DNA from: a virus
DNA: 64,000 nt
IMG/VR virus record: IMGVR_UViG_3300046323_000673
Coordinates: 1 to 64,000 of that record
Strand: one strand, 5' to 3'
Part shown: piece after piece, positions 522 to 59,403 of the stretch
How the letters are laid out: each line of letters opens with the position of its first letter
Numbering within the stretch: position 1 is the first letter of the stretch
Made by a program: the position numbers and the translations under genes
The notes under the pieces: model-generated
Told to the model about the DNA's origin: nothing
Seen by the model: only the letters and a program-made list of their open reading frames with translations
Databases searched by the model: none

Positions 522-551
522 AAATCCAATTGGATCGATCCAATTGGATTT
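522..551. repeat. 30-bp nested palindrome, copy 1
   Basis: AAATCCAATTGGATCGATCCAATTGGATTT exact; followed by TAACAT and AGGGAG before ATG 576. Confidence 0.97.
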
Positions 552-575
552 TGCCGTGTAACATAGGGAGTCGTC

Positions 576-1067
576 ATGTCGGAACAGGAAGCGGACAAGC
601 AGGCGAGTGATGCGATTGTGGCGGGCGTTGCGTTTTACGCAGCGGCACTTGCACGGGCGGATGTTGAACGTGCGAGGTTGAATAAGACGATTGCCGAGCG
701 TGACAAAACGATTATCGCAATGATCGACGAATCGAATTTCGATGCGAAGAAGACGAACGATATTCGTATTGATCATGAGAAGTATCAGCAGGAAGCCCAC
801 GACGCGAAATGCGAAGTGGGTACATTGAAGACCAAGCTCGAAAGCACCGAACAGGCATTGAAGACCGAACAGGCAAAATGTCGTCGCTTGGAATCAGACT
901 ATGAGGTGCAATCGCGTTGGTGTGATCAGTTGTGCGAGATGGCTCGTAAAACGGGGCGCCCTGCTCTTATGACGACGGAAGCGCTCAAAGTAGCGAAGGA
1001 CGCGATTGACGAATATATTGTCAATCATCCGCCCACGATTAACAAGCGAGCATCTTCCGAGTTCTAA
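576..1067 (+). CDS. hypothetical coiled-coil protein
   Basis: 163-aa ORF, SD AGGGAG, heptad-like K/E-rich middle. Confidence 0.75.
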   Translation: MSEQEADKQASDAIVAGVAFYAAALARADVERARLNKTIAERDKTIIAMIDESNFDAKKTNDIRIDHEKYQQEAHDAKCEVGTLKTKLESTEQALKTEQAKCRRLESDYEVQSRWCDQLCEMARKTGRPALMTTEALKVAKDAIDEYIVNHPPTINKRASSEF

Positions 1068-1294
1068 TGCCGTCCCCCCGCTGGATTGCATGGACCCCGT
1101 CTTCTTCCCGCCCGCACATTACCGCCCAATACACCGAACGCGTTTACGACTACGAGACACGCGCTTTCGAGCCGCAAACCGTGCATGCCCATTGCGGCAA
1201 GTGCAATGCCGTGTTGAAACACGAATGCGCATCGGGTAGGCCCCGCGAATGGATAGCCCGATTCGCGCTCGTTCATCGTCACGACGACGCATGA
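1067..1294 (+). CDS. small putative zinc-binding protein
   Basis: 75 aa, CGKC...C...HRH; start overlaps upstream stop (TAATG). Confidence 0.6.
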   Translation: MPSPRWIAWTPSSSRPHITAQYTERVYDYETRAFEPQTVHAHCGKCNAVLKHECASGRPREWIARFALVHRHDDA

Positions 1295-1301
1295 TTCCCC
1301 C

Positions 1302-3359
1302 GTGAAAGATTATATCTCCCAGCTATTCGATGCGAATGGGCGTCTTGCTACGAGGTTTGACGGGTACCAACCCCGGCCCGGACAGATCACCCTCGCTCGC
1401 AAGATCGATCAAGCGGTGCAAACCGGTGGGCGATTGTTGATTGAAGCTCCCACAGGGACAGGCAAGAGCTTTGGGTATCTTGTCCCGAGCGTGTATCACT
1501 TGACCGTGGGTTCCGACGCGCTGCTTGCGGCAAGGCAATCATCGGGCGCGGATGACGGGTTCGATGTTGAGGACGATGAGAACCCCGCCCCATACCCCCG
1601 CGCGGTGATTGCGACGGCAAACATTGCGTTGCAAGAGCAGCTTATGGGCAAGGATGTGCCGTTGATCCAAAACGTCGTGCCCGAATGGGAGTTCACCGCG
1701 GCGATTGCGAAGGGGCGGGCGAATTACCTGTGCCTGCATCGCTTCGACGAAACATGTTCGGACACGTTACTCGACCCGATTCGTGACCCCGAAGATCGCG
1801 AACGGTGGAACGTGCTTGCAAAGTGGCGAACGGAAACGACGACGGGGGATCTTTCCGAGCTGAGGTTTGAGCTATCAAGCACGTTAAAATCGAAAGCGGC
1901 AATCGCTGCGGACGATTGCATTGGAAAAGCATGCTCGCGTTCTGATGAATGTTTTTCGCAGAAGGCACGTGCCGCGGTACAGGAAGCTGATTTGGTGGTG
2001 ACGAATTACCACATGCTTTGCACGCACCTTTCAATGATGAATGAGTTTGGCCGGGGATTATTGCCCCGGTTCGATCTTCTGATACTTGATGAAGCGCATG
2101 CATTGCCCGATGTTGCGCGGGACTTTTTTGGGTTCAAGGTATCGAGCGGGGCGATTGCGTATGCGGTGCGGCTGATGGCGTCTTCGAAGTGGAAGGGGTC
2201 GTGCCCGTTTGCCCCAGGACTTCGCGACGACGTGATGCGCGCGGCTGAAGATTTTTTTCAAGAATTGGCGGCGTACAAATCGGGCCCGGTGTATTACGGG
2301 CGGCTAAAGGAACCAGATCCCGTCGATTCGTCGCGGCTTGTTTCATTGCTTGAACAAGCCCGTGATGCGCAAGTGGGCGTGTCGTCATCTGCGTGCGGGG
2401 TTGATATTGAACGTGCAGAGCAGCTCCGGCGCGCGGCGCGCAAATGCAGATTGCACGCGGAAAACATTCGCCGGGCAATGGAAAACAAGGATACGGGGCG
2501 CAAGGTAACCGAGGTGTTCTTCGTCGAGGAAAACGGGCGTTCGGTTGCGCTTTGCTGTAAACCCGTGAGTGTTGCGGGCATTCTGAAAAGTACGATATGG
2601 GAAGCGGTATCTATTCGCGCGGTGATTGCGACAAGTGCGACGCTTGCGGCTGATAACAGCCGTGACTCGATCGGGTACTTCTCGGATGAAGTGGGCGCTG
2701 ATGTCGCTGAACAATTGGTCGTGCCGAGTCCATTCGATTTCATGAAGCAGGCGTTGCTTGTGATTCCCGCGAACTTGCCGGACCCGAAGGACAAGCAGTT
2801 TGCCGAGCGCGTATCAGTCGTGATTGCCGATGCAGTCGAGCAAGCGGACGGGCGTTCATTGGTGCTTTGCACGAGCTACAAGACGCTTGCATGCGTGTAC
2901 GACGTGCTCGAAAGACGATTCGGTCATCGGTTCACGATCCTTCGTCAGGGGATGGCGCCGCGCATGCAATTGATTGAGCGATTCAAAAAGGACGTATCGA
3001 GTGTTTTGGTAGGAACGAAGTCGTTTTGGGAAGGCGTGGACGTGCCGGGTGAATCATTGTCGTGCACGATTATCGACAAGATCCCGTTCGATAGCCCGGA
3101 CGATCCGATCAACGACGCAATGAATGAGATCCTTGGACAGAAGGCGTTCAAGCAATACGCGATTCCCCGTGCGTCGATTGCGTTGCGGCAAGGGTTTGGG
3201 CGATTGATTCGCAGTTCGTTTGATCGGGGCGTGGTTGTGATATGCGACAAGCGGTTGGTTGATAAGCCTTTCGGGCGTACGATTGCGAATGCGTTGCCTA
3301 AGACGCGAGTGAGCCACAACATCGACGATATCAGGTCGTTTCTTGCGGGGCGGGCATGA
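1302..3359 (+). CDS. DinG/YoaA-family ATP-dependent DNA helicase with Fe-S cluster
   Basis: Q motif RPGQ, Walker A EAPTGTGKS, KGRANYLC plus further Cys, DEAH, TSATL, FWEGVD, QGFGRLIRS. Confidence 0.93.
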   Translation: MKDYISQLFDANGRLATRFDGYQPRPGQITLARKIDQAVQTGGRLLIEAPTGTGKSFGYLVPSVYHLTVGSDALLAARQSSGADDGFDVEDDENPAPYPRAVIATANIALQEQLMGKDVPLIQNVVPEWEFTAAIAKGRANYLCLHRFDETCSDTLLDPIRDPEDRERWNVLAKWRTETTTGDLSELRFELSSTLKSKAAIAADDCIGKACSRSDECFSQKARAAVQEADLVVTNYHMLCTHLSMMNEFGRGLLPRFDLLILDEAHALPDVARDFFGFKVSSGAIAYAVRLMASSKWKGSCPFAPGLRDDVMRAAEDFFQELAAYKSGPVYYGRLKEPDPVDSSRLVSLLEQARDAQVGVSSSACGVDIERAEQLRRAARKCRLHAENIRRAMENKDTGRKVTEVFFVEENGRSVALCCKPVSVAGILKSTIWEAVSIRAVIATSATLAADNSRDSIGYFSDEVGADVAEQLVVPSPFDFMKQALLVIPANLPDPKDKQFAERVSVVIADAVEQADGRSLVLCTSYKTLACVYDVLERRFGHRFTILRQGMAPRMQLIERFKKDVSSVLVGTKSFWEGVDVPGESLSCTIIDKIPFDSPDDPINDAMNEILGQKAFKQYAIPRASIALRQGFGRLIRSSFDRGVVVICDKRLVDKPFGRTIANALPKTRVSHNIDDIRSFLAGRA

Positions 3360-3865
3360 GCGCGAACGATAAAGCGTATTTGATGATCTGCGTAAATACG
3401 CAATCACTGCCCCTGCAAATCCCGTCATGGGCGATGCGTATGGTTGACGTGATGCAATCTGTCCGGATAGCGGTCATTGCACTTGAACAGGCAGCTTCGA
3501 CGATTACGAATTGTGACGATGACGAACGCAGCAAGGCCGAACGATGCGCACGCTTGTTCGCACAATTCGATATCGACCACGGTAATCGAATGAAGGAAGT
3601 CGCGACGCTCTTCACGGTGAAGCGTAACGAGGTGCCTTCCGAAATCGCGCAGTCGTTCGGCGCGGATATCACTGTGCTCGCATTGGCGTGCAGCAACATC
3701 AAGTTTCGAGGCGCGGTGTTTGCACGCATGCTTGAATCTCAAGAGTGGAATGCACCCGCAAGCATTGCGCTTTTCGCGTTGTCCGAGTCAAGCAAGGGGC
3801 AAACACACTTGCTTGATTGGGGTGCGCAATTCATCCTTGCGCCTGATACGAATTGCACGGCGTGA
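3356..3865 (+). CDS. hypothetical protein
   Basis: 169 aa, ATGA overlap with helicase stop. Confidence 0.7.
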   Translation: MSANDKAYLMICVNTQSLPLQIPSWAMRMVDVMQSVRIAVIALEQAASTITNCDDDERSKAERCARLFAQFDIDHGNRMKEVATLFTVKRNEVPSEIAQSFGADITVLALACSNIKFRGAVFARMLESQEWNAPASIALFALSESSKGQTHLLDWGAQFILAPDTNCTA

Positions 3866-6869: not shown

Positions 6870-6899
6870 AAATCCAATTGGATCGATCCAATTGGATTT
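6870..6899. repeat. 30-bp nested palindrome, copy 2 (extends to 38 bp, 6866-6903)
   Basis: Exact copy 23 bp after the ParB-family stop. Confidence 0.97.
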
Positions 6900-6939: not shown

Positions 6940-6968
6940 TTGACTAGCGGGGCATCATGCCCCATATT
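6940..6968 (+). promoter_or_regulatory. sigma70-type promoter with A-rich UP-like tract
   Basis: TTGACT-17-CATATT preceded by GAAAATAAAAAG; homologous to promoters at 58415 and 59451. Confidence 0.7.
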
Positions 6969-7648: not shown

Positions 7649-8491
7649 TTATCGGTGTTTGCCGCGGATGACAAGCTCGTCAACCGAACCCCGCGATGCA
7701 CCCCGTGATCCCACGCTACGACCCGCCTGCACAACCGTGCAATCACACCCCTCGTAAAGCATACGCATCACCGAATCATCGTTCGTCGAAAGCACGACAA
7801 TGCATCCTCGTTCGTCGAGGGTGCGGAACACGTCACGAAGTCGGCGATGCTCATCAATGCCGAACGTGCCTGAGTAGCCCGTAAACGTTCCCAGGTAGGG
7901 CGGGTCGAAGTAAACCACGTCCCTGGCTTGTGCACGCGCTAGGACCCCCTCAAACACCTCGCAATGCAGTTCGGCGGAACGCAGTGCAGTTGAGCAAGCA
8001 CGCATATTGTCGAGGTCGAACGTGATGGGTTTGCCGTCCCCAAACGGCGCATTGAATTCCACTTTCGAGTTGACCCGATGTAGCCCATTGAAACATGCGC
8101 GGTTCAGATAGAGAAACCAAGCCGCTCGTTCGATGTTGTTTTGCTGTTTCTGTGCATTGAACATACGTCGAACATTCTCGAATTCAGCGCGTGTATTCAT
8201 TGCCGGGTATGAAAGATGCACACATTTCAATCGGAATTCTTCGGACAATCCCATCTGCAAAACCTCGTACAGCCCAATCAAATCGGCGCATGTATCCGAT
8301 AGAACGGCGCGCGTAGGCAATAGGCGAAAGAAGAGCGCAGCACCCCCCGCGAACGGCTCGAACCATCGTCGCGATCGTACATCCGTGGGCAAGAGCGGAA
8401 CGAGCTGGTCGATCAAATTGGATTTGCCCCCGAGCCATTTCACGGCGGGCGTGGGATACGTTTCGGGAAGTGCGAGTGACAAGGTGCGCAT
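7649..8491 (-). CDS. dam: Dam-family (D12 class) DNA adenine methyltransferase
   Basis: KWLGGKS, EPFAGGAALFF, FLYLNRACFNGLHRVNSK.EFNAPFG, YFDPPY; start placed at ATG 8491 because the longer ORF runs through a palindrome. Confidence 0.92.
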   Translation of the reverse strand: MRTLSLALPETYPTPAVKWLGGKSNLIDQLVPLLPTDVRSRRWFEPFAGGAALFFRLLPTRAVLSDTCADLIGLYEVLQMGLSEEFRLKCVHLSYPAMNTRAEFENVRRMFNAQKQQNNIERAAWFLYLNRACFNGLHRVNSKVEFNAPFGDGKPITFDLDNMRACSTALRSAELHCEVFEGVLARAQARDVVYFDPPYLGTFTGYSGTFGIDEHRRLRDVFRTLDERGCIVVLSTNDDSVMRMLYEGCDCTVVQAGRSVGSRGASRGSVDELVIRGKHR

Positions 8492-8521: not shown

Positions 8522-8551
8522 AAATCCAATTGGATCGATCCAATTGGATTT
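8522..8551. repeat. 30-bp nested palindrome, copy 3
   Basis: Exact; between divergent dam and 8608 ORF. Confidence 0.97.
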
Positions 8552-13439: not shown

Positions 13440-13469
13440 AAATCCAATTGGATCGATCCAATTGGATTT
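13440..13469. repeat. 30-bp nested palindrome, copy 4 (extends to 13437-13472)
   Basis: Exact. Confidence 0.97.
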
Positions 13470-17339: not shown

Positions 17340-17369
17340 AAATCCAATTGGATCGATCCAATTGGATTT
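17340..17369. repeat. 30-bp nested palindrome, copy 5
   Basis: Exact; left flank is reverse complement of CGTCGAGTAACAT. Confidence 0.97.
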
Positions 17370-22476: not shown

Positions 22477-22506
22477 AAATCCAATTGGATCGATCCAATT
22501 GGATTT
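22477..22506. repeat. 30-bp nested palindrome, copy 6
   Basis: Exact; followed by CGTCGAGTAACATAGAGGG then ATG 22531. Confidence 0.97.
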
Positions 22507-27118: not shown

Positions 27119-27148
27119 AAATCCAATTGGATCGATCCAATTGGATTT
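27119..27148. repeat. 30-bp nested palindrome, copy 7
   Basis: Exact; followed by CATCGAGTAACGAAGGGATTTG. Confidence 0.97.
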
Positions 27149-29570: not shown

Positions 29571-29600
29571 AAATCCAATTGGATCGATCCAATTGGATTT
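29571..29600. repeat. 30-bp nested palindrome, copy 8
   Basis: Exact; between scaffold and MCP. Confidence 0.97.
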
Positions 29601-29624: not shown

Positions 29625-29654
29625 TTGACGAACGGTGATCCTCGCGCGTAGGGT
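29625..29654 (+). promoter_or_regulatory. candidate promoter for major capsid gene
   Basis: TTGACG-18-TAGGGT in 220-bp intergenic region. Confidence 0.45.
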
Positions 29655-32266: not shown

Positions 32267-32296
32267 AAATCCAATTGGATCGATCCAATTGGATTT
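32267..32296. repeat. 30-bp nested palindrome, copy 9 (extends to 32263-32300)
   Basis: Exact; between convergent genes. Confidence 0.97.
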
Positions 32297-34580: not shown

Positions 34581-34610
34581 AAATCCAATTGGATCGATCC
34601 AATTGGATTT
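34581..34610. repeat. 30-bp nested palindrome, copy 10
   Basis: Exact; between divergent genes. Confidence 0.97.
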
Positions 34611-38081: not shown

Positions 38082-38111
38082 AAATCCAATTGGATCGATC
38101 CAATTGGATTT
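38082..38111. repeat. 30-bp nested palindrome, copy 11
   Basis: Exact; left flank is reverse complement of CGTCGAGTAACGTAGGGATTTG. Confidence 0.97.
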
Positions 38112-41961: not shown

Positions 41962-41991
41962 AAATCCAATTGGATCGATCCAATTGGATTT
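41962..41991. repeat. 30-bp nested palindrome, copy 12
   Basis: Exact; between divergent genes. Confidence 0.97.
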
Positions 41992-43089: not shown

Positions 43090-43119
43090 AAATCCAATTG
43101 GATCAACCCAATTGGATCT
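43090..43119. repeat. 30-bp nested palindrome, copy 13 (3 mismatches)
   Basis: AAATCCAATTGGATCAACCCAATTGGATCT. Confidence 0.9.
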
Positions 43120-44604: not shown

Positions 44605-44634
44605 AAATCCAATTGGATCGATCTAATTGGATTT
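44605..44634. repeat. 30-bp nested palindrome, copy 14 (1 mismatch)
   Basis: AAATCCAATTGGATCGATCTAATTGGATTT. Confidence 0.95.
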
Positions 44635-46590: not shown

Positions 46591-46648
46591 GGTTTGTCTC
46601 TTTCCTGTAATGGGTGGGTAGTATGCATGAATTTTTCATGCAGCACCC

Positions 46649-46678
46649 AAATCCAATCGGATCGATCCAATTGGATTT
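46649..46678. repeat. 30-bp nested palindrome, copy 15 (1 mismatch)
   Basis: AAATCCAATCGGATCGATCCAATTGGATTT. Confidence 0.95.
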
Positions 46679-46698
46679 CACCGTGATACAGGTAGGGC

Positions 46699-47948: not shown

Positions 47949-47958
47949 ATCTGCGATC

Positions 47959-48276: not shown

Positions 48277-48277
48277 T

Positions 48278-48532
48278 TCACAAGTCGATGCAATCGGCGA
48301 CGCTAAAGCTACGTTCCGATTTCAATTGAGCTTTCAATCGTTCGACTTCTGCTTTCAAGGCATCACGTTCCATTGCCAATTCTACGATAACGCCTGGATA
48401 CACGTAGCCTTGGTATCCGTTAGGAATCAATTCAGGATGCACACAATCGGTCCGATAAGTCTTCAAAACATCAGCATCGATCGTCATTTGCATAGGAACA
48501 CCAAGTAAAGTTCCTGCCCATACAATTTTCAT
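48278..48532 (-). CDS. antisense insert: hypothetical protein
   Basis: SD GAGGT; ERDALKAEVERLKAQL coiled coil; next to palindrome copy 16. Confidence 0.65.
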   Translation of the reverse strand: MKIVWAGTLLGVPMQMTIDADVLKTYRTDCVHPELIPNGYQGYVYPGVIVELAMERDALKAEVERLKAQLKSERSFSVADCIDL

Positions 48533-48565
48533 GAAATCACCTCTTGTTCGCTTCATGCCACGACG

Positions 48566-48595
48566 AAATCCAATTGGATCGATCCAATTGGATTT
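48566..48595. repeat. 30-bp nested palindrome, copy 16
   Basis: Exact; between divergent genes. Confidence 0.97.
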
Positions 48596-48652
48596 CACCG
48601 ACAAAACCGATGATCCTTGACCCAACGCCCCAACTTGCACGACCCTGTACCC

Positions 48653-49456: not shown

Positions 49457-50325
49457 TGCTGGGCCTTGGTTGGGGCTCTAGCGGGTGGGGGGCTAGTGGT
49501 TGGGGTGCGCCTACCCTTGCCGATGCACTCACGATTCTATCGGCGGTTGCGGTCCGGGAAAACTGCGTGCGTCTCACGTTCAATTTGATCCTCGCGTACA
49601 CCGACGTGCGAGGACTTGTCGACGCGGCCGATCCTGATAACTACGTGTTCGAACCTGTGGAAGGCACGATCGGCGAAGATGGTTTGCCCCCCCGGCCTGT
49701 GTTTCCCGTGCTTGTCGAACAAGTCAAACGACCCGACGTGAATGGTAAATCGATCGACGTGTGGCTTGATCGACGATTGTCACCATATCCCGCGCAATAT
49801 CGTGTTCGTTGCGTGCGTTCAGTTGCCGCAAATGGCGCTGCACTTTCAAGCATGATTGCCGTGTTTCACGGCGTAACGTGGGCACCTCCCACGCCGGAAA
49901 ACGCAACCACGCCCGCAACCGACATCGCGAATCCCGGATATGAATCAGCATCGATCCCGGGTTCAACGCAGATCTTGGGCGTGTATCCAACGACGTCCCA
50001 AGGCGACTACGCGACGGATCAAGGACTCGTTTCGTACAAGAAACGCATCTTTCGCCGGCTCACGACAAGGCGTGGACGATTCGCGCATTTGCCAAATTAC
50101 GGCGTAGGGTTGCTTGACCAGATCAAACGCCTCGCCAAACCTTCGATCAAACAGACGATCGCGGCGCAAGCAGAGGCGCAAATACGCGAGGAACCTGAAA
50201 CACTCGACGTGCGCGTGACAATCACGAGCGACGCAAACACACCGGGACTCTTCCGATTCCGCGTGCAGGCGCGAACAAGTGTGTTCGGTACGGTAAACCT
50301 CGACATTCCCGTATCAACTGCGTGA
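49456..50325 (+). CDS. baseplate wedge protein with C-terminal gp25/gpW-like domain
   Basis: GLVSYKKRIFRRLTTRRGRFAHLPNYGVGL...IREEP; precedes baseplate J. Confidence 0.75.
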   Translation: MLGLGWGSSGWGASGWGAPTLADALTILSAVAVRENCVRLTFNLILAYTDVRGLVDAADPDNYVFEPVEGTIGEDGLPPRPVFPVLVEQVKRPDVNGKSIDVWLDRRLSPYPAQYRVRCVRSVAANGAALSSMIAVFHGVTWAPPTPENATTPATDIANPGYESASIPGSTQILGVYPTTSQGDYATDQGLVSYKKRIFRRLTTRRGRFAHLPNYGVGLLDQIKRLAKPSIKQTIAAQAEAQIREEPETLDVRVTITSDANTPGLFRFRVQARTSVFGTVNLDIPVSTA

Positions 50326-50335
50326 TTATTGCCGG

Positions 50336-51442
50336 GTGGATACCCCTACCCGCTTCGACCTCTACCAGATTGGCCGTGAGTATCTGCTCACGTACGCGAC
50401 AAACATTCAGCGCAACGTGGTTGACACTGAAGGGTCGGATGCGAACCTGTTCGTCGGGGCAACAAGCTTCATGGCGGGCGCGGTATCAACGCAACTTGCC
50501 GCTCGATTAGCTGCGCATTTTGCTCGTTCCGCAATTGGTGAAGACCTTGATCGATTGCTTGTCGATCGGTGGACCCTACCGCGTAAAGGTGCAGCACCCG
50601 CAATCGGTTCCGTTCGTTTTTACCGAACATCAGCAGCAGCCGGTGCGGGTACGGTTCTGGTTGGAACGAAGGTCGGAACGGATGACGGTATCGAGTACGT
50701 CACAACAACGCCTGCGCTCTTCAGCACAGGAACGCTTTCGGTTTCCGCTGACGTGCGTGCAACACGCGCGGGCGATACGCAGCAAGTCGGACGATACCGG
50801 CTCGTTCGTATTTATCAACCGGGTGTGATCTTTGACCCGTCGATTCAAGTCATCAACGACGAATCCACCGCGGGCGGGGAACCTCGAGAAGATGACGACG
50901 ACTATCGATTGCGAGGGCAGAACGCACCTGCTTCGCTTGCACGCGGAACGTTACAAGCCATTCGTGAGGGTGCGGTATCAACGCCGGGTGTAGCGACTGC
51001 AATGGCAACGGAAGCCATCGACGGGGATCTTCGTCCCGCACGCGTTGTGCTTTTATCCATCGCGGATGGTTCGGGGTTGGCAAATCGCGCATTAGGAAAC
51101 GAGGCATTGCGCACCGTTGATGATTATCGCGCGGCGGGAATTGCCGTGATTGCCACGTTATCCACGCCGTTTCTGATTGGCGTGCGATTGAAACTCGCGT
51201 TCATCGCGGGCGTGTCGACGACGATCCTGAGTGATACCGTTCGGCGTGCGGTGATCGCATACGTGAACAGTTTACCCACGGGCGGCGCGCTCTATCGCTC
51301 GAACTTGAACAGCTTGCTTGCGCGGTACCAGGCAAACGGGCTGATACCGAATCAAAGCAGCATCGTCGAACCAACGGGCGATATCTTCCCGCCGGCGGGG
51401 CGAACGATTCGCACGACAAGCGATCTCGTCACGTTGGAGTGA
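50336..51442 (+). CDS. baseplate J-like protein
   Basis: AIGEDLDRL...RKGAAPAIGSVRF, GGEPREDDDDYRLR, ARGT..AI. Confidence 0.88.
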   Translation: MDTPTRFDLYQIGREYLLTYATNIQRNVVDTEGSDANLFVGATSFMAGAVSTQLAARLAAHFARSAIGEDLDRLLVDRWTLPRKGAAPAIGSVRFYRTSAAAGAGTVLVGTKVGTDDGIEYVTTTPALFSTGTLSVSADVRATRAGDTQQVGRYRLVRIYQPGVIFDPSIQVINDESTAGGEPREDDDDYRLRGQNAPASLARGTLQAIREGAVSTPGVATAMATEAIDGDLRPARVVLLSIADGSGLANRALGNEALRTVDDYRAAGIAVIATLSTPFLIGVRLKLAFIAGVSTTILSDTVRRAVIAYVNSLPTGGALYRSNLNSLLARYQANGLIPNQSSIVEPTGDIFPPAGRTIRTTSDLVTLE

Positions 51443-51453
51443 TCAAAAGGACA

Positions 51454-51483
51454 AAATCCAATTGGATCGATCCAATTGGATTT
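51454..51483. repeat. 30-bp nested palindrome, copy 17 (extends to 51451-51486)
   Basis: Exact; abuts 3' CCA of tRNA-like element. Confidence 0.97.
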
Positions 51484-51485
51484 TG

Positions 51486-51589
51486 TGGGCGCGGCGACGG
51501 GACTCAAACCCGCGACTCCGACAACCTTGGGTAAAAGATAACGAAAACTCCAAAGTCGTCGGCGTACGTCACCTTGATCTGCACCGCGC
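51486..51589 (-). ncRNA. tRNA-like RNA with extended anticodon arm
   Basis: Acceptor CGCGGTG/CGCCGCG plus C-CCA, T arm GCGGG-TTTGAGT-CCCGT, variable loop AGTC, 13-bp stem with 19-nt loop in place of anticodon arm, poorly paired D stem. Confidence 0.55.
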
Positions 51590-51727
51590 ATACGCATCAT
51601 GACTCGTCGTCGAAGTACTCGCACGACATATCGTTCGGCGCCGCGTGAGTCATACGTTGTCGTCGGCGCCGAACGACGTGTCACTTGGGTACCAGGGCGA
51701 CGCATGCTTTGCGCTAACATCGCCAAC

Positions 51728-53302
51728 ATGGCCGAACTGAAGACAGGACCCATCACCCGCGCAGAGCTCGAACAGATTTGGAAGAGCGTCACGGACCCCG
51801 AGTATTCCCGCGCGTTCATCGACCGGGGTGAAGGACAAGGGTTCGAAGCGCACACGCAAGCGATGCAGCAGCTCGCGCGCGTATCGACGGGCATTGACCG
51901 AACAACGCAAGGGCTCTACGTCAAATCTTGGTCGGGACAAACGTTCGAGCCTGCATCAGGCGCGCAGTTCTCGACTGTGGATATCACCATCACCCGATCG
52001 AAGGAATTCGTTTGGTCGGTTGTGCTTCCCGTCGGAACACGCATTCAAGAGGTAGCGATCGATTTCGGTCGACTCGGGGGGGAAGAAGTTATCACCGGCC
52101 GGGAATACCTCTTCCCGCAAAACACGGGATTCGTCTCAGGGCAACCCGGACCCATCACCATTACCGCGATTGCAGATAGGCAAGGTGAAGGTTTCGACAA
52201 TCCCCTGCCCGGAACGTTGAACCGCATTGCACAGGTCGGTGTTGGGCTCTCCAATTCAGGCGCGAGCATCGTGCTTGGAACGAGCATTCATTCGATGATT
52301 CTCGCAATCGAACCCGACGTGATTACGAATGACCAGATCGGGCAATACGTGCAGTTCATCGCAGGTGCGAACCAAGGGCAGATCCGCCGCGTCGTGGGTA
52401 TTATTCCGCCCGATCCGATAACGCCGATCGATGGCGGAACCGCACTGCTTGAAGCAACGCAAATCTTTCGATTCGCATCAGTGGCCGGAACGTTCATCCC
52501 CGGCGAGATACTTTCGCAACCCGCAACGCCCGCGACAAGCATCGTCGTTTTGCAGGGACCGACCCATTTGATCGCGCAACGGCAAAGCGGGGATATCGTC
52601 GCGGGAACGCTTGTGTATGGCGTGCAAAGCGGCGCGGTTGCAGTCTTCGATTCTGTCGATCAATCGGGTGACTTGATCGCCGAAACGAACACCGCAACAT
52701 GGCGGATCATGAGCTGGGGTGAATTCGGGATTGCTGTTACGAACGAGGAACACCCCAACGGCGGACGTGCAGCCGTGCTTGACGAAATTGGATATGAGCG
52801 GATGACGTATCGCGGCACGGGCGAAAGCGACGATGGGTTTCGTAAACGCGTTGCGAACTTTGCGGACCTCGTGAGTCCCAAGGCGATCACGCGCATTGCG
52901 AATCGAATCCTTGTTCCGTACGGATACGAGGCGCATTTGTGCGAGGTGGGGAAGCCGAACTTTCGAGGGTTCTTCTACGACGGCGATCCCGTGCAGCAAA
53001 ACCCAGCAATCGCGTTTGCATACGATCTCGACTTCGCATTGCAACCCGCGCAAAAGCTCATGCTCGAACTCGATTACACAGAATTCCGCGCGTTCTTTTT
53101 GTTGGGTGTGCCGCGACTTGCGCTTGGTGAATTCGGGTTTGCGTACGATGATGGGATGGTGAACTTCTACGATGCAGCGCCATACCTATCGTTTTTCGAT
53201 GGGTTTCCGGCAACTGCATCGACGATTTACCGAACGTTATGGCACGCGGTAAACGGGGCAAAAGCGGGCGGGGTAGGGTTTGACTTGTCGGTGGATTGCT
53301 AA
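51728..53302 (+). CDS. baseplate wedge/tail protein following J
   Basis: VLDEIGYER...GESDDGFRKRV, AKAGGVGF C-terminus typical of gpI/J-like wedge proteins; start placed at ATG 51728. Confidence 0.7.
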   Translation: MAELKTGPITRAELEQIWKSVTDPEYSRAFIDRGEGQGFEAHTQAMQQLARVSTGIDRTTQGLYVKSWSGQTFEPASGAQFSTVDITITRSKEFVWSVVLPVGTRIQEVAIDFGRLGGEEVITGREYLFPQNTGFVSGQPGPITITAIADRQGEGFDNPLPGTLNRIAQVGVGLSNSGASIVLGTSIHSMILAIEPDVITNDQIGQYVQFIAGANQGQIRRVVGIIPPDPITPIDGGTALLEATQIFRFASVAGTFIPGEILSQPATPATSIVVLQGPTHLIAQRQSGDIVAGTLVYGVQSGAVAVFDSVDQSGDLIAETNTATWRIMSWGEFGIAVTNEEHPNGGRAAVLDEIGYERMTYRGTGESDDGFRKRVANFADLVSPKAITRIANRILVPYGYEAHLCEVGKPNFRGFFYDGDPVQQNPAIAFAYDLDFALQPAQKLMLELDYTEFRAFFLLGVPRLALGEFGFAYDDGMVNFYDAAPYLSFFDGFPATASTIYRTLWHAVNGAKAGGVGFDLSVDC

Positions 53303-53405
53303 CGTTCGCGACGGGGTTTCCAGGGCGGTTCTTCCCCCGGTTCGCCCATTGTTTGAGCGAGACCGGGGATGGTTCCCGCTGCGCCAAGCACGGCACCAAG
53401 AATCG
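53299..53405 (-). pseudogene. 3' fragment of the gene split by the IS1-family element
   Basis: Encodes ILGAVLGAAGTIPGLAQTMGEPGEEPPWKPRRER*, in frame with 56746-57261 once element and one duplication copy are removed. Confidence 0.8.
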
Positions 53406-53721
53406 GGTAGTGGGGTAAGTACCCCAGTCGCAGTTTCAAATGGGACCACTTTGGGAACGCAAACGGTCGTACTTGACGAACCCTAGTCGATGACGATTTG
53501 TGCGTACCTGAACACGCGAACCGATGACAAGAATCGTCCGATCCATCGAATGAGTGCTTGACCGTTGCAAAGTGGTCAAGTTTCACCGTGACAAACTACT
53601 AAACAATGTCCTAGCGCGCGGACAAACACTAGAAAACACTGCGTTTGGTGCTAGATTGGTCTTACTTGACGTGCACTGAAGAGTCGATTTGTTCGACGCC
53701 GGTGCGCTTCGCGAGGGGACC

Positions 53722-54819
53722 ATGTCGAACGTTTTGTCCGACGAGAAGCGTCTTGCCGTTCTTGCGGCATTGGTGGACGGCAATTCTGAGCGTGCGGTCG
53801 AACGCATGACCGACGTTGATCGGAAGACGGTTCGTCGACTTGCGATTGCGTTGGGTGAAGGTGCGGTCAACCTGCACAATCGTCTCGCGCGTGGGTTGTC
53901 GTGCTCTCTTGTCCAAGTCGATGAGATTTGGTCGTACGTGCAGAAGAAGGAAGCTCGCGTCACTGAGAAGGACGGCCCCGACGTAGGAGAGGCGTACACG
54001 TTCGTCGCGTTGGATTCGTCATCGCGGTTTGTCATTGGTTGGCACGTGGGCAAGCGTGACCAAGCGTCGACAGACACCTTCATGCAGGACGTGCGTGCGC
54101 GGCTCGTTGTTATGCCCGCCATGACGTCGGACGGGTTCGCGCCGTATATCAGTGCGATCGGTGCGTCGTTCGGTCCTGGCATCGATTACGCGCAAACGAT
54201 CAAGAATTACGGAAGCAAGGGACGTCGCGAGGGCGGATCGGATCACCGCTACGAGCCCCCTCGTGACCCGTTCATCACGAAGAAAAGCATCTTCGGCGCT
54301 CCGAACCTTGAACGCGCGAGCACGGCCTACGTAGAGCGAAACAACGGGACAATGCGCCATCACATTGGACGCATGCGCCGCTTGTGTTTGGCATTTTCCA
54401 AGAAACTTCCGAACCATCGCGCGGCAATTGCGTTGGCGTACGTGCACTACAACCTTTGCCACGTGGTCTCTACGTTGCGCGTAACGCCCGCGATGGCGGC
54501 GCACGTGACGGATCATGTTTGGGATCTTCGGGAGTTACTTGCGGCGTTGCTTGACGCTGCTCCTTGTGAAGCACCGGAGAAGCAGGTCCTTGCGTCTCGC
54601 GTGCCCGAAGTGACGCACCGCGAGCTTCCGAATAATCGCGGCTTTCTTCGGGTCGTGGACGGCGGGAAAGCCAAACCTGTAGCGCCTACGCCGATCGCCC
54701 CTGTACCCGTTCCAATGGTTGCGACGGTAGCCGAACCCGAAATACCACGGGGGACGCAGCTCGATCTTTTTGCCTGGAAAACACGTGAAAGACAGCTTTC
54801 GCTGTTTCCCGATGCGTAA
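53722..54819 (+). CDS. IS1-family DDE transposase
   Basis: N-terminal HTH, VQVDEIWSYVQKK, WHVGKRD, TSDGFAPY, TAYVERNNGTMR, RRLCLAFSKK, TPAMAA. Confidence 0.9.
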   Translation: MSNVLSDEKRLAVLAALVDGNSERAVERMTDVDRKTVRRLAIALGEGAVNLHNRLARGLSCSLVQVDEIWSYVQKKEARVTEKDGPDVGEAYTFVALDSSSRFVIGWHVGKRDQASTDTFMQDVRARLVVMPAMTSDGFAPYISAIGASFGPGIDYAQTIKNYGSKGRREGGSDHRYEPPRDPFITKKSIFGAPNLERASTAYVERNNGTMRHHIGRMRRLCLAFSKKLPNHRAAIALAYVHYNLCHVVSTLRVTPAMAAHVTDHVWDLRELLAALLDAAPCEAPEKQVLASRVPEVTHRELPNNRGFLRVVDGGKAKPVAPTPIAPVPVPMVATVAEPEIPRGTQLDLFAWKTRERQLSLFPDA

Positions 54820-54889
54820 CAAATAGACGTTGCCAATAAACATGGTCTATTGCTTCAATCATGTTCATCGATTTTGGGGACGTGTGACA

Positions 54890-55351
54890 ATGAAGCATGA
54901 GCGTAACAACTGGCCTCCGTCGTCGGCACAACTCGCGATCATAGACAAGAAGTGGCATCTGAGCGCAGAGCTACCACTTCCACCTGAAAGCACGTTGATC
55001 GAACATGCTTTTTTGATTGCGTGCGGTGTTCGACCAATGGCGTTGGTTTGCGCTATCGGTAATGATCCGGGAGCCGTGTACTATGTCGCGCTACGGCTTG
55101 ACAAGTACGCGGTAAACGCTGGCGATAACGTGATCGCGTTTATGGTTCAGGATGATAACGGCGTCATGCAATGTGGATTTGCCGGTGCACCATGGGTCAT
55201 CGATATGCTTCGATTTGCATACAGCACAGCCGCTGCGGACCATAAGCACGAGATAATCGGGCTACTGCTTGGCTACAGTGCCAACGCCATCGACCGTCAT
55301 GCGTGTTTCAATGCGGGCAAACCCGTAATTAACCCAATAGGTCAAGTTTGA
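54890..55351 (+). CDS. IS cargo: hypothetical protein
   Basis: About 153 aa, HEIIGLLLGYS motif; ORF track start 54830. Confidence 0.6.
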   Translation: MKHERNNWPPSSAQLAIIDKKWHLSAELPLPPESTLIEHAFLIACGVRPMALVCAIGNDPGAVYYVALRLDKYAVNAGDNVIAFMVQDDNGVMQCGFAGAPWVIDMLRFAYSTAAADHKHEIIGLLLGYSANAIDRHACFNAGKPVINPIGQV

Positions 55352-55727
55352 CCGCATACCAATCGCATTGGGGGCACATGGTACATCTAGTAAACTCGTC
55401 AGATTTTATCAGTCGGACTTCCTTCATGTGGCCACACACGCTCAAATAGCTACCCGTGAATGGCACTTTGCCATTAAGCGTTGTCTTATTGGCTATGAGT
55501 TCACGAGCATTCTTTTGCACGCTTAGCGATCGCATTACATCATCGCTTTGGCGTGCTGCTATTACCATGTGTATCGAATTTGTACTCTCGAACAGTACCG
55601 GATTAACGGATATAACTTCGTACGAACCGTTCGTCAGTTCGTCGAGCGTGGCTTTCGCCTTTTCTAGCGGCACTGTGCGCACTTCCCAAGTGTAGACAGT
55701 GTGGAGAGGCAAAGGTTTGTCGGCCAT
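55329..55727 (-). CDS. IS cargo: hypothetical protein
   Basis: 132 aa; WEVRTV...LDELTNGSYEVISV (DUF4177-like) plus C-terminal Cys cluster. Confidence 0.6.
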   Translation of the reverse strand: MADKPLPLHTVYTWEVRTVPLEKAKATLDELTNGSYEVISVNPVLFESTNSIHMVIAARQSDDVMRSLSVQKNARELIANKTTLNGKVPFTGSYLSVCGHMKEVRLIKSDEFTRCTMCPQCDWYAVKLDLLG

Positions 55728-55994
55728 GGATCGGATCCCATGGCGAGCGCACGCAACACGAATCCCTTGACTCGGGACCGTTACCCCTTCATCATCGCAC
55801 GCATCCGTGACGGGATGGCGGGCGAGTCTGTCGGGGCGAAAGCCGCGCGGCTCGCCCTTCTACTTTTGTTGTCAACCGCTAAACGTCCAGACAAGCCCAA
55901 ACGTTCAGCGTGTGAATGGATGGAACACCACGGCGAGCCAGTCAATGGGGCATTGTGTGGAATTTTCTACGCAATTCTAAGCAATTGGAATTGC

Positions 55995-56252
55995 TCACGA
56001 ATGCGAGACAAGAGGGGCAGTTGTCGCGTCAATCCGTGCTTCGATCTCGCGTAAACCCTTCAAGATCTCCCGACGTAGGAACACGCGTGAATGCACGCGT
56101 TTATCAGGCGTCGCGGTAGCGTCTTCGACCAACGAACGAAGGTTCGTCACAACGGGACGAAGCAGATCCGCATAGGCCGCAAGGGCCGCGGGATCGGAAG
56201 TCTGGATCGCGGCACGTATCCGCGCGCGTTCCCTCACTCGGGATCGGCTCAT
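55995..56252 (-). CDS. IS cargo: small helical protein
   Basis: MSRSRVRERARIRAA...; SD GGGAGG, ATGA overlap with HTH gene. Confidence 0.6.
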   Translation of the reverse strand: MSRSRVRERARIRAAIQTSDPAALAAYADLLRPVVTNLRSLVEDATATPDKRVHSRVFLRREILKGLREIEARIDATTAPLVSHS

Positions 56253-56593
56253 GCTGCCCTCCCGATGATCGGCGTCGTGACGACAACCTTCCCGCCTAGA
56301 AGGACCTCTACAGGCACCTTTGCCACGGCCGCCAAACGGATCGCGAACGTTCCGGTAGGCGGGATCCCGTTGGGATTTGCGATGCGTCGAAGCGTCCCGG
56401 ATGGGATCCCGGTTTGGACGGCGAGACAAGCGAAGCTTCCGAACGCGCGCTTCAACTTACGCACGGCGACGCGTACGGCCTTAGTTTCTTCGGGGGATAA
56501 CTTCAACGCGTCGGAACGACGGCGCTTTGCGGGGGATGTTTTAGACGTGTCGTTTTCTTGGCCAGCTTCGCTAGGCCAGGATAGATCGAACAT
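56249..56593 (-). CDS. IS cargo: XRE-family HTH regulator
   Basis: GSFACLAVQTGIPSGTLRRIAN...AIRLAAVAKVPVEVLL; SD GAGGT. Confidence 0.75.
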   Translation of the reverse strand: MFDLSWPSEAGQENDTSKTSPAKRRRSDALKLSPEETKAVRVAVRKLKRAFGSFACLAVQTGIPSGTLRRIANPNGIPPTGTFAIRLAAVAKVPVEVLLGGKVVVTTPIIGRAA

Positions 56594-56745
56594 GGGCGTG
56601 ACCTCGTAGAGCGGGGTTGCGTCAAGTCGCCTCGGAGGGTTTCCAGATCCTTCGGGGCGACGCCTTTTCAGGCACGCACATTCTACATCGCCGCAAGTTC
56701 GATCGTGTTAAATGGGACCACTATTCATGAAAGTACCCCACTACC

Positions 56746-57261
56746 AAGAATCGCCATTGTCGCGATTCTTGCATTTCGATTCACGCGGCGATATGCGGGC
56801 GATTGATTCGGGCGATGAACCGTCACCTCCATTTGATCTGAACCTGGCATCGCGGGATCAACCCCGGTGATGTATTCGCTCGCAACGGGCGTTCCTTGGG
56901 GCGTGCCTTCCTGTTCCTGCACGTCGGTTGTCTTGTGTTCGGCACGCTCGGGAACTGCCAGTTGCGGCGCGGCAAATTCACCATTCACCCATTCAATGAT
57001 CTCACGTTCACCATCTGGTAAAACGTACCTAAGTTTGGGCGAATCGTAATACCAGTATACGAGACGTCCATCGGGCAACCTTGACTCGTGATGATTGTGC
57101 ACATTGGCGCAATCATACGCATTGTATTGGCATACAATGCCGGAAGGATGAAGCGCGTGGCAATATGACGGCTTCTGTTTGGGAAAGTCGGGATGACCCG
57201 CGGTGATGGGTTTCCCGTACCATTCCCCAAGTCGAGCATTGTTTCGTTTCGCTTCACCCAT
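56746..57261 (-). pseudogene. 5' part of hypothetical gene interrupted by IS element
   Basis: MGEAKR... ORF runs into the IS right end and stops at 56725; natural C-terminus lies at 53299-53405. Confidence 0.8.
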
Positions 57262-58309
57262 TTAAGCACCTATCACAGTGGCGCATTCGTACATCGCCAT
57301 CCTTCGAAAACAGCTTGATCCCGTGAACCGGACATTCGTCAATCGGAACATGCGCGGAATAAGCGAATGCACTCTCATCACGAACAATTAATTGCTCATT
57401 GCCCAACCATCCTTGTTTGCGCAGTTCACCGACGATATCAGCAGGCGTCCACCCCGGCGGCTTCAATCGCTTCCCATCGCTTTCGCGTTTGGGCCCGTCT
57501 TTCTTCGCCATGTTTGCGGCGTGGATCGCGCGTGCAATTGGTCGACCATCGACGCCACATGCAACCCGCGCCCCTTCGATAACCACGTCGAGATCGCCCA
57601 ACGCGTCGATGAATTCGGGGAAGTCGACTTTGATTCGTCCATCTTTGATAATCGCAAGAATCGAATCTTGGATTGATTCCAATTCCATGCACTCCGCTTC
57701 ACCGCCGCCATAAATGCCTTGATTTCCAAACACGGAATCAAGCAGCTCGACGAACTCTTCCGCAATGAGCCGCAATCGAAAGCGCACGGTCGCATCGCTC
57801 GGAATGCCAGGCGTATCCCGACGCTCTTGGTCGGGAAGCACAACCGTGAACAGCTCGCGAACCTGCGTTGTGCGGTCATTGGCGCGGCATTGTTCAAGCT
57901 CTTTGCGCATACGCTGAACATCGAGTGCGATACCATCGCCGCCGTTTTCGGATGCATGCCCAACGTGCGCAAGTTCGGCTGAAACGTCGCGGATGACTTC
58001 GCGGAAACAATCGCGGTACATATCGCGTTCAATACGCATTTCGTCAAGTTGTTTTTGCAATAAGCGGATCGAACTATGCTTCTCGATGAACGCAATGCAT
58101 TCGGGCGGCGCACCATCCTCCGCGCGTTGATGCCACGCGTCGGAAAGCTCCTGCTTAAAGTCGTGGATCAAGTCATAGTCGTCAGTACCGTCACCATCCC
58201 GTTTTGCGATGATGTGGCTGTACGCATCCGAGATCATGGATCGTGCCCACGCATCGAAGAATTCGTCGAGTTCATTGGCGTCGTCGTTGGGTGTTTGCTC
58301 TTGAGTCAT
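57254..58309 (-). CDS. MazG-like/PRA-PH-like NTP pyrophosphohydrolase domain protein
   Basis: FRLRLIAEEFVEL...IDALGDLDVV..G...IHAANMAK...DGKRLKPPGW; SD AAGGAG. Confidence 0.82.
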   Translation of the reverse strand: MTQEQTPNDDANELDEFFDAWARSMISDAYSHIIAKRDGDGTDDYDLIHDFKQELSDAWHQRAEDGAPPECIAFIEKHSSIRLLQKQLDEMRIERDMYRDCFREVIRDVSAELAHVGHASENGGDGIALDVQRMRKELEQCRANDRTTQVRELFTVVLPDQERRDTPGIPSDATVRFRLRLIAEEFVELLDSVFGNQGIYGGGEAECMELESIQDSILAIIKDGRIKVDFPEFIDALGDLDVVIEGARVACGVDGRPIARAIHAANMAKKDGPKRESDGKRLKPPGWTPADIVGELRKQGWLGNEQLIVRDESAFAYSAHVPIDECPVHGIKLFSKDGDVRMRHCDRCLNG

Positions 58310-58346
58310 CGGGGGGAAGCTCCTTCGTTTGGGTTCATGGCACACA

Positions 58347-58376
58347 AAATCCAATTGGATCGATCCAATTGGATTT
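58347..58376. repeat. 30-bp nested palindrome, copy 18 (extends to 58344-58379)
   Basis: Exact; between divergent genes. Confidence 0.97.
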
Positions 58377-58414
58377 TGTCGGCAGTAGTACGAAAAGAAA
58401 ACAAACAACATCAC

Positions 58415-58443
58415 TTGACACCCTAGGCATCATGCCCTATATA
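58415..58443 (+). promoter_or_regulatory. sigma70-type promoter with A-rich UP-like tract
   Basis: TTGACA-17-TATATA. Confidence 0.7.
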
Positions 58444-58492
58444 TGGGTTGTCGACGGCGCGATGAGTGCTGCAACAAGGGAGCTGGACGAAG

Positions 58493-58696
58493 ATGAACAT
58501 CGGGGACGTGGTAACCGCAAAGGTTCGATGTGAAGTGGTTGAGCTTGTTGTGTCGTCGGTGATTCAGGTTTCCGACGCGATGAAGCAAGCCAAGCCCGGT
58601 ATTGTGTGTACGATCATCGCAGAAGGCAGCCACAAGCGTACGCAGTTGTGCAAGATCGCTGACGTGTTCTCTGATGGTTGCGTTGCTTGGATGTGA
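58493..58696 (+). CDS. small hypothetical protein
   Basis: MNIGDVV...; SD AAGGGAG. Confidence 0.6.
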   Translation: MNIGDVVTAKVRCEVVELVVSSVIQVSDAMKQAKPGIVCTIIAEGSHKRTQLCKIADVFSDGCVAWM

Positions 58697-59373
58697 TGAG
58701 CCAATCGCATCTTTGATGAACCCCGACGATAGCGCCGGGCTCAGTGCGTTAAGTGCCTAGAACATTGTCACAAGACGGCCCCTGGAACGCGTCGACATTC
58801 CCGAACCACCAAAGACACGACCGAACCAACCAACGACGCACCTTGCCCGGTTCTATTGCGAACGAAATACGTTCACGACCGGGCGAGTGTTACGCGTTTG
58901 GGCTAGCGGGTCGTGCGGCGTGAGGGGGTAGGGGGTTTTGTTGTTGCCGTTTGGGAGACGGCTGCGCGTTCGCTTGCCGTCGTGGCGATGGGTTCAAGTA
59001 CAGCGCGTTCACCACTCGCACTTGGTCCAACAACATCACGTCGCGACGTCGTTGCGTGCAACGCAACGGAGCACTCCGCTAGGAGTGCTCCTGAGACAAT
59101 GATCAAGTATGATTACGAAATATAGCGATATATTGCGTAAGATCTAAGTATTTCGATCCCATACAAAATAGTACCTTGACACCTTGCCTATGTCACGTCA
59201 CCCTAGAGGGCGGCGGGAGGGGAAGGTCTGGATCTTACGCGTGCGTGTGTGCGCATGCGCGTGTACGCGTGACGTGCGCGAGGGGCGATCGAATGAGGTG
59301 TGGGCGACCTGAGACGTCCACACGTGACGAGTTTGGACCATCGCCGGGACGTGTTTTGCTATGTTACCCGATG

Positions 59374-59403
59374 AAATCCAATTGGATCGATCCAATTGGA
59401 TTT
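59374..59403. repeat. 30-bp nested palindrome, copy 19
   Basis: Exact; both flanks resemble those of copy 2. Confidence 0.97.

Follow-up and report, generated by a model that had tools for sequence, protein, structure and literature searches.

The first 64,000 nucleotides (nt) of the virus record IMGVR_UViG_3300046323_000673, hereafter the window, make up bases 1-64000 of one virus contig of 83,860 bp and carry, scattered through their gene gaps, repeated copies of a 30-bp palindrome. The contig belongs to a tailed phage with a contractile tail and encodes a terminase, a portal, a major head protein, baseplate proteins and a protein with a weak sheath match. Replication and repair are represented by a family-B DNA polymerase (PolB), a DnaB-like helicase, a primase, RecA/UvsX-like and SbcCD-like proteins and a RuvC-like gene that was read by eye, without a family match. 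Confidently called genes lie almost all on the plus strand. A search of 50,697 deposited phage records turned up no close relative: nothing matched at the DNA level or to the sheath protein, and the terminase gave matches only at <60% identity. The window holds no transfer RNA genes (0 by ARAGORN) and no Rfam matches at gathering score, and Pfam scans gave no repressor-like or integrase family, with the limit that small fast-evolving proteins could escape such scans.

An array of near-identical palindromes in gene gaps

The 30-mer is its own reverse complement, built as AA...TT around two copies of ATCCAATTGGAT joined by CG, as an earlier reading made from the letters of the DNA (the sequence-only reading) had described it. 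It starts at exactly 19 positions in the window, 16 of them exact and three with one to three mismatches, so that the earlier list was reproduced on recomputation; none of 100 dinucleotide-preserving shuffles contained a match. Extending the search to the rest of the contig, as had been proposed, yielded four more copies at contig positions 64587 (one mismatch), 69451, 74193 and 82422, for a total of 23 copies, 19 exact. Neighbouring copies are 1,027 to 6,893 bp apart in the window, in line with the 1.0-6.9 kb noted before, and 1.0-8.2 kb apart on the whole contig. At up to one mismatch the 12-mer occurs 39 times in the window, 38 times within the 30-mer copies and once as a one-mismatch orphan at 8412, and it is never found exactly outside the copies. 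As the 12-mer is confined to the copies apart from this orphan, the unit is the 30-mer and not the 12-mer. No other strongly repeated motif was found in this genome. The tetramer GATC is over-represented rather than avoided on the whole contig (638 observed, about 320 expected from base composition). The flanks of the copies show no target-site duplications, and families of flanks recur at distant copies, with 18-19 identical nt shared between 522 and 44605 and between 27119 and 69451.

The phage was present in 24 DNA runs from freshwater and sediment metagenomes. Contigs from four of those runs, belonging to four other studies, cover 32001-52000 and bridge the copies at 44605 and 46649 with 0 differences, and independent contigs break at exact copies, the behaviour expected of de Bruijn graphs when they meet a repeat. 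An assembly or adapter artefact, which the sequence-only reading had named as a way in which its claim might fall, is ruled out by the independent contigs of the four runs. A host repeat was rejected as well: the 26-nt core of the element has 0 exact matches in IMG/VR and in 185,579 prokaryote species genomes (one each), and Y1/RAYT transposases (Y1_Tnp) were absent from all five phage genomes tested, both of which set the array apart from repetitive extragenic palindromic (REP) and REPIN elements. The spacing in kilobases, with genes between the copies, is unlike that of CRISPR repeats. The earlier judgement that the motif is neither a host REP nor a CRISPR repeat is thus upheld.

On a gene map curated with codon statistics all 23 copies lie in gaps, within 23 of the 48 gaps of at least 30 nt, which agrees with the earlier statement that every copy is intergenic. 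The gene maps are our own rough calls, and this placement depends on the choice of start codons because the longest raw open reading frames (ORFs) cross several copies. Four copies occupy divergent gaps (8522, 41962, 44605 and 58347). The array is spread evenly over the packaging, head, tail and replication modules and is not confined to hyperplastic regions. In five of five genomes tested the spacing is more even than random (coefficient of variation 0.44-0.60), with P of about 0.002 for the window genome against random gene boundaries and 0 to 0.017 for relatives against uniform placement.

Promoter-like sequences stand at fixed distances from the palindrome. The extension YRYCGAG-TAACAT-AGGGA stands beside 13 of the 23 copies, on one side only of each and at a constant offset; the fuller motif is GTAACATAGGG, and the core of this motif (at most one mismatch) was found only beside the palindrome. 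Of 46 flanks, 9 have TAnnnT exactly 7 nt off the palindrome edge, where 0.18 would be expected. Extensions on the right are followed by a plus-strand start codon about 5-12 nt on, and those on the left (n=5) face into the 3' end of the upstream gene. There are four sigma70-consensus promoters in gene gaps, all of them 25-48 nt downstream of a copy; three are near-duplicates with an A-rich upstream stretch and one stands ahead of the capsid gene.

Several features around the array deserve mention in their own right. Small minus-strand, protein-like ORFs are interleaved with the plus-strand tail and baseplate genes (window 41341-48556), where most of them start beside a palindrome, and they look like inserted extra genes. 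Between two early-promoter cassettes, window positions 58696-59373 (about 680 nt) hold no confident gene and an odd GC/GT-rich run, into which the left-facing extension of copy 19 points. A transposase-like ORF at 53689-54819, with weak rve/IS1 matches below Pfam cut-offs, may be an inserted insertion sequence (IS); it lies in the copy-free interval 51454-58347, so that, as stated before, no copy is inside the IS.

A private palindrome for each lineage

Relatives were found through the sheath, capsid and polymerase proteins, and four further complete genomes were added; below, labels beginning with G stand for genomes and those beginning with L for loci or contigs. In total 22 distinct lineage palindromes of 16-30 bp were recovered (including those of L096 and L099), each lineage having its own. 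All 22 are perfect through an even centre and CG-centred, with G001 carrying a single asymmetric base pair, and the centres read ATCGAT, CACGTG, TACGTA, CCCGGG, CTCGAG, GTCGAC, GGCGCC or AGCGCT. Because the lineages are related, counts of the 22/22 type are not independent events. Arrays of 7-31 copies were present in eight of the nine complete genomes examined (G001 31, G003 24, G004 19, G002 18, G005 17, G006 8 and G008 about 7). The complete genome G007 (L105-L109) has no palindrome array; in its place stands a non-palindromic repeat of about 20 nt, present six times and containing AAACCGAAACCC. The threshold for a family in shorter loci was three copies of a palindromic 10-mer, and about 40 such loci had no palindrome family at this threshold, many of them being too short to judge. 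One further genome, G009 (the contig of L086), is classed as a provirus by IMG/VR and has seven copies of a 20-bp palindrome in 22 kb; its class may bear on lifestyle and host. A search among relatives, suggested by the sequence-only reading, therefore had a divided outcome: arrays exist throughout the clade, but their sequences are lineage-private and the 26-nt core itself has no IMG/VR match.

While the sequence of the palindrome changes between lineages, its positions persist. L043 is syntenic with the window over 17.0-32.2 kb at about 66-75% nucleotide identity, and its palindromes, which read CTTTCGGATCGATCCGAAAG, are orthologous in five of five cases to window copies (17340, 22477, 27119, 29571 and 32267). 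The promoter TTGACG...TAGGGT that follows copy 8 also follows L043 site 9383. Downstream of PolB the window has a palindrome 17 nt past the stop codon; in G001, G002 and G004 the genome's own palindrome is translated in frame, as a linker before a C-terminal PolB domain (L023, L040 and L031). This extra domain of about 75 amino acids is 34% identical between G002 and G004.

A closer comparison is given by the contig L096, whose ParB-like protein is 93% identical to that of the window. In the orthologous gap it carries the 30-mer with T10C and A21G, a double change that keeps the 30-bp dyad and breaks both 12-bp sub-palindromes, whereas window copy 46649 has T10C on one half only. The earlier suggestion that two adjacent dimers occupy the 12-bp halves is weakened by this pair of substitutions, by the single palindromes of 16-24 bp in relatives and by the fact that the 12-mer is never found alone. 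In G001 all 31 copies, 24 forward and seven reverse, depart from the perfect palindrome of the close relative L015 by the same single asymmetric pair. The L096 double change, the G001 pair and the flank families are more than mutation acting independently at each site can give, and the copies must be copied from one another, whatever selection then maintains them.

Transcription signals of the relatives were also compared. G004 shows the same hexamer pattern as the window at offsets 4 and 7 (7 of 38 flanks against 0.02 expected per offset). The idea that the palindrome is a fixed substitute for a -35 element fits the window and G004 and was rejected, as it fails in G002, where distances vary, and in G001, G005 and L043, where there is no hexamer. 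As a separate observation, TAG(C/G)CT followed by ATG or GTG 6-7 nt on, on the gene strand, recurs in G004 (18 times), G005 and G002 (loci L028-L042), which suggests promoters that lack a -35 element and yield leaderless messages; at that distance from start codons the window genome has an about 9-fold enrichment of CATGAT.

Table 1 Palindrome copies, promoters and selected genes of the window. Extension refers to the motif beside the palindrome.
Feature	Position	Strand	Description
Copy 1	522..551	.	Exact; 2 nt past stop of ORF 10-519; next ATG 576; right flank with GTAACATAGGG at offset 6, 0 mismatches
ParB-family protein, 675 amino acids	4819..6846	+	Pfam ParB_N and HTH_ParB; candidate reader in one sublineage
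Copy 2	6870..6899	.	Exact; 23 nt past ParB-like stop 6846; reversed extension on left, 2 mismatches; sigma70-type promoter 40 nt downstream
Sigma70-type early promoter	6940..6968	+	TTGACT-17-CATATT, A-rich stretch upstream; read directly; near-duplicate of those after copies 18 and 19
Dam-type methylase (D12-class)	7649-8491	-	Start 8491, beside copy 3
Copy 3	8522..8551	.	Exact; divergent gap between minus-strand Dam-type methylase (start 8491) and plus-strand ORF; right extension 2 mismatches
Copy 4	13440..13469	.	Exact; 2 nt past stop 13437; variant extension on right
Copy 5	17340..17369	.	Exact; 62 nt past terminase stop 17277; left extension 2 mismatches; ortholog L043 site 272
Copy 6	22477..22506	.	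Exact; right extension 1 mismatch; ATG 22531; ortholog L043 site 2576
Copy 7	27119..27148	.	Exact; right extension 2 mismatches; ATG 27168; ortholog L043 site 6983
Copy 8	29571..29600	.	Exact; upstream of capsid-gene promoter; ortholog L043 site 9383
Sigma70-type promoter	29625..29654	+	TTGACG-18-TAGGGT; 25 nt downstream of copy 8; precedes major capsid gene 29776-31161
Copy 9	32267..32296	.	Exact; 12 nt past stop 32254; ortholog L043 site 12009
Copy 10	34581..34610	.	Exact; between minus-strand small ORF 34106-34330 (74 amino acids) and plus-strand gene preceding sheath gene
Copy 11	38082..38111	.	Exact; left extension 1 mismatch
Interleaved small ORFs	41733-41957, 42761-43069, 44338-44595, 46396-46590, 48278-48556	-	
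Copy 12	41962..41991	.	Exact; divergent gap between minus ORF 41733-41957 and plus ORF at 42066
Copy 13	43090..43119	.	3 mismatches (positions 16, 18, 29); between minus ORF 42761-43069 and plus ORF 43139
Copy 14	44605..44634	.	1 mismatch (C20T); right extension 0 mismatches; bridged by independent contig, no differences
Copy 15	46649..46678	.	1 mismatch (T10C); bridged by independent contig; L096 carries changed base on both halves
Copy 16	48566..48595	.	Exact; gap ahead of plus ORF 48617
Copy 17	51454..51483	.	Exact; 11 nt past stop 51442; among 2/6 copies flagged by terminator scan (44001-64000)
Copy 18	58347..58376	.	Exact; divergent gap between minus-strand pyrophosphohydrolase-like gene and early promoter
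Sigma70-type early promoter	58415..58443	+	TTGACA-17-TATATA; 39 nt downstream of copy 18
Copy 19	59374..59403	.	Exact; left extension 2 mismatches; early promoter 48 nt downstream
Sigma70-type early promoter	59451..59479	+	TTGACT-17-TATATA

Hairpin in RNA or site on duplex DNA

Transcribed into RNA, the element would fold into a hairpin of 13-16 bp (-16.5 to -23.5 kcal/mol, z -3.8 to -6.0). Such a stem-loop could serve as the terminator or attenuator half of a terminator-promoter cassette of the PeSL kind, insulating transcription units, with its copies kept alike by recombination. The good fold, the position of the element 2-23 nt past stop codons in many cases and ahead of promoters, and the small minus-strand ORFs of the tail module that start beside copies, a likeness to PeSL cassettes, all speak for this explanation, which we nevertheless consider unlikely. 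In G001 the fold is no better than that of shuffles (z -0.85), with a C-A mismatch on the messenger RNA strand in 24 of 31 copies. The stem is followed by 3-4 T here and by no T-run in G+C-rich relatives, and a scan for a stem plus T-run flags two of the six copies in 44001-64000; the element falls short of an intrinsic terminator in both its U-tract and compensatory change of the stem. In addition, three genomes have copies within the essential PolB frame, and other copies occupy divergent gaps, which offer nothing to terminate.

Pairing was also followed into the sequences around the palindrome. In a permutation comparison with mispaired controls, the variable flanks of eight genomes gave no excess complementarity, P being 0.054 in the window, 0.14-0.68 in five genomes, and 0.99 in G002 and G004, which lie below the control. 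An extension of the stem was accordingly rejected: 8-9 of the 23 copies have at least three extra paired bases, which does not beat the mispairing control (P = 0.054). Furthermore, the positions that would form the loop are self-complementary in 22 of 22 lineages, although a hairpin does not require that.

Alternatively, the hairpins could be targets of an RNA-binding or RNA-cutting protein that processes polycistronic messages. Identical hairpins do stand directly before ribosome-binding sites in G001 and L043, but the full symmetry, the presence of both orientations and the copies in divergent gaps argue against such processing, no RNA-processing protein was recognised and there is no Rfam match, all of which makes this explanation highly improbable. 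From these comparisons of sequence we argue that the element is probably read by its sequence on duplex DNA; selection seems not to act on pairing itself.

Possible regulatory role, candidate readers and precedents

As a tentative reading, with somewhat less than an even chance of being right, we propose that the 30-mer is a dispersed, operator-like site on duplex DNA for a putative phage regulator. A symmetric site at the boundaries of transcription units would be recognised by sequence by a phage-made dimeric or higher-order DNA-binding protein. Copies bound over or just upstream of promoters would switch sets of genes on or off together, or would block read-through, and the net effect would be an operator array across the whole genome. 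Site and reader would co-evolve, leaving a private palindrome in each lineage, and identity within a genome would be kept by selection together with copying between sites. The sequences show the sites, their symmetry, their lineage-private sequences and conserved positions, and their fixed distance to promoter-like hexamers; binding by a protein, the identity of that protein and the sense of the regulation are inferences.

The regulatory reading is supported because copies are invariant within a genome and replaced between lineages, and because positions persist (5/5 with L043, and beside PolB) while the sequence changes. It is further supported by a symmetry of the type seen in duplex recognition (22/22 even and CG-centred, and the double substitution in L096), by flanks without excess complementarity, and by the link to promoters, the divergent gaps and the phage's own sigma factor. 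Of the regulatory, genome-organising and recombination roles that the sequence-only reading had offered, the evidence ranks the regulatory one first.

Several observations weigh against an operator-like role. A site length ranging from 16 to 30 bp across lineages is odd for one conserved protein family. Selection for binding does not account for the asymmetric pair shared by all G001 copies, which suggests that sites are copied from one another. Many copies of G001 and L043 stand only 5-20 nt ahead of a ribosome-binding site and have no hexamer resembling a promoter, and in G004 only 5 of the 18 promoter-like TAGSCT sites adjoin a palindrome; the site is therefore not part of every promoter. 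Nor did the search for a reader find one. Pfam found no standard helix-turn-helix (HTH) or ribbon-helix-helix family among 79 smaller ORFs, and a comparison of eight palindrome-bearing genomes with G007 returned antisense shadow ORFs and one papain-like peptidase, but no DNA binder. The only clear sequence-specific DNA binder is the ParB-like protein, which has homologues in none of G001-G005 and none in IMG/VR. The phage's sigma factor was considered as a reader and rejected, since its C-terminus does not evidently covary with palindrome class and the palindrome-free G007 has the factor too.

This sigma factor is encoded by a core gene at contig 69506-70195 (L077:6506-7195) and is a divergent member of the sigma70 family that Pfam misses in this genome. 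Within its family 66 of 71 members match Sigma70_r2, profile matches to solved structures are FliA and extracytoplasmic function (ECF) sigma factors, and 839 cluster representatives were found in a library of 1.84 billion proteins. The gene fits a transcription programme run by the phage and the leaderless-type TAGSCT-N6-7-ATG sites of G004, G002 and G005. Conserved small proteins at contig 63938-64480 and window 1067-1294 have no family in a protein atlas, the former giving a weak helicase-loader lead, and nothing useful came from comparing profiles of two further core families with solved structures. The protein at 1067-1294, 75 amino acids long, is zinc-ribbon-like. Gating of the site by the Dam-type methylase was rejected: a D12-class methylase is encoded in the window and in G001 and missing from G004 and G005, whose palindromes share the GATCGATC centre, and G004 is without any of the three methylase families tested.

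The ParB-family protein, which the sequence-only reading had named among possible binders, has a real ParB/Spo0J/Noc-type N-terminus and HTH with a box for binding cytidine triphosphate (CTP); its best solved relatives are Spo0J, ParB and Noc (E 4e-21, GxRRxRAA box aligned). The palindromes could thus be loading sites of the parS or KorB-operator type for a phage ParB-family CTPase whose sliding or spreading would silence or compact the genome. One copy lies just past the ParB-like gene, and a 16-bp palindromic core is common to the three lineages that have the ParB-like protein; L096 and L099 agree in it fully, and the window departs from them at one symmetric pair of positions. This explanation is improbable, as homologues were found only in L096-L099, that is, three near-identical contigs and one 57%-identical contig (short metagenome contigs), although G001-G005 have 17-31 palindromes each; what stood of the earlier proposal is the protein's identity, and what did not is its generality, since it belongs to one sublineage and the arrays are clade-wide. 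The short ParB_N-only proteins of G001, G002, G004 and G005 belong to another family, for which neither G003 nor the window gave a member, a search for a ParA-type ATPase returned only a P-loop inside the DnaB-like gene, below cut-off, and the copy adjacent to the gene simply occupies an orthologous gap ahead of an early promoter.

A different kind of reader would act on the DNA itself. The element could be the target of a DNA transaction, a hotspot of recombination or cleavage, perhaps extruded or cut in its middle, that spreads by copying itself together with its flanks from gap to gap and is either semi-selfish or seeds recombination-dependent replication and cassette exchange. The replacement of all sites of a genome together between relatives would agree with this, as would the shared pair of G001 in its 24 to 7 orientations, the half-converted copy at 46649, the shared flank families, the even spacing and the RecA/UvsX-like, SbcCD-like and by-eye RuvC-like genes, and the authors of the Cluster O study inferred deletions through recombination between repeats (PMC4351075). 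Nevertheless we hold it to be quite unlikely. Target-site duplications are lacking, as is a transposase of the REP-associated type, and copying accounts for the uniformity of the copies but not for why they are kept. Positions conserved at 70% identity argue for function at the site rather than free mobility.

Perhaps, although this too is unlikely, the palindromes are an evenly spaced address system of the chromosome, read or cut at the CG centre by machinery of an undescribed type such as a loader or a structure-specific nuclease. A nuclease of this kind would seed recombination-dependent replication and cassette exchange, and the whole set would be rewritten when a lineage diverges. The promoter link would then be secondary, gene gaps being usually the only places able to keep a perfect dyad of 16-30 bp.

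Operator-like arrays have relatives among known systems. The conserved inverted repeats of phiC31, the C1 operators of P1 and the centromere sites of N15 each place one operator in many copies on a phage genome; in these temperate phages the repressor or partition protein has been identified. A literature search, which was not exhaustive, found precedents of the kind and nothing on this clade. The sequence-only reading had spoken of an undescribed phage system: a genuine, non-chance phage cis-element stands, but its kind has precedents in Cluster O repeats, stoperators, KorB operators and PeSL cassettes. What is new here is the clade-wide, CG-centred, lineage-private and position-conserved pattern.

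A close likeness is to the Cluster O mycobacteriophages (Corndog group), an unrelated phage group whose genomes each carry more than 30 dyad repeats of 17 bp with invariant arms, distributed genome-wide, many in short gaps and some inside genes, and described as absent from the host genome; the study describing them inferred that copies recombine and suspected a binding dimer, but assigned no function (PMC4351075). Both systems have sites throughout the genome, many in short gaps and some intragenic, for which orientation is meaningless. Cluster O repeats are built as 7+3+7 with a free spacer, whereas the dyad here is perfect through CG and 16-30 bp long, and five Cluster O phages share one sequence, whereas here the sequence differs between relatives at conserved positions. 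Stoperators of Cluster A phages are 20-30 dispersed sites, mostly outside promoters, at which bound repressor blocks transcription, with a genome-specific consensus that tracks repressor divergence (PMC6550527). The copy numbers (23 here and 7-31 in relatives) and lineage-specific sequences are similar. Stoperators are asymmetric and oriented with transcription, in contrast to the self-reverse-complementary element described here, which in G001 stands in both orientations before plus-strand genes. The repressor of Cluster A is known, while no repressor or integrase was recognised here and the replication genes look lytic and T4-like.

PeSL cassettes are repeated promoter and stem-loop units that flank small extra genes and have shown terminator activity (PMC2839356, PMC4122927). 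They resemble the present array as repeated intergenic units of stem-loop and promoter beside small extra genes and as points of recombination, but their stem-loops, as described there, vary in sequence, cluster in hyperplastic regions and accompany sigma70 early promoters, whereas one exact palindrome is spread evenly over the early, replication and virion modules here. KorB operators of the plasmid RK2, read by a ParB-family CTPase, are 16-bp palindromes whose distance upstream of promoters is either 4-10 bp or 45 to >1,000 bp (PMC11790492). Dispersed 16-bp palindromes at varied promoter distances, and a ParB-family protein encoded in the window, recall KorB operators and parS; unlike in those systems, the ParB-like gene is missing from most array-bearing relatives and no ParA was found.

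The reach of the pattern is considerable. The capsid protein has 1,114 relatives at E <= 0.001 among 8,000 candidates scored, and a large clade with no cultured member follows one rule, namely one private, CG-centred, perfect palindrome per lineage, placed every 3-6 kb at conserved positions. Here is a natural experiment on how a reader and its 20-30 DNA sites shift specificity together, with dozens of matched site sets, and the dyad repeats of Cluster O, so far unexplained, can be approached through it. If the reader is a regulator, the clade would hold a family of mutually orthogonal operator-regulator pairs; if the reader is something else, the palindromes may represent a novel means for phages to organise or process the chromosome.

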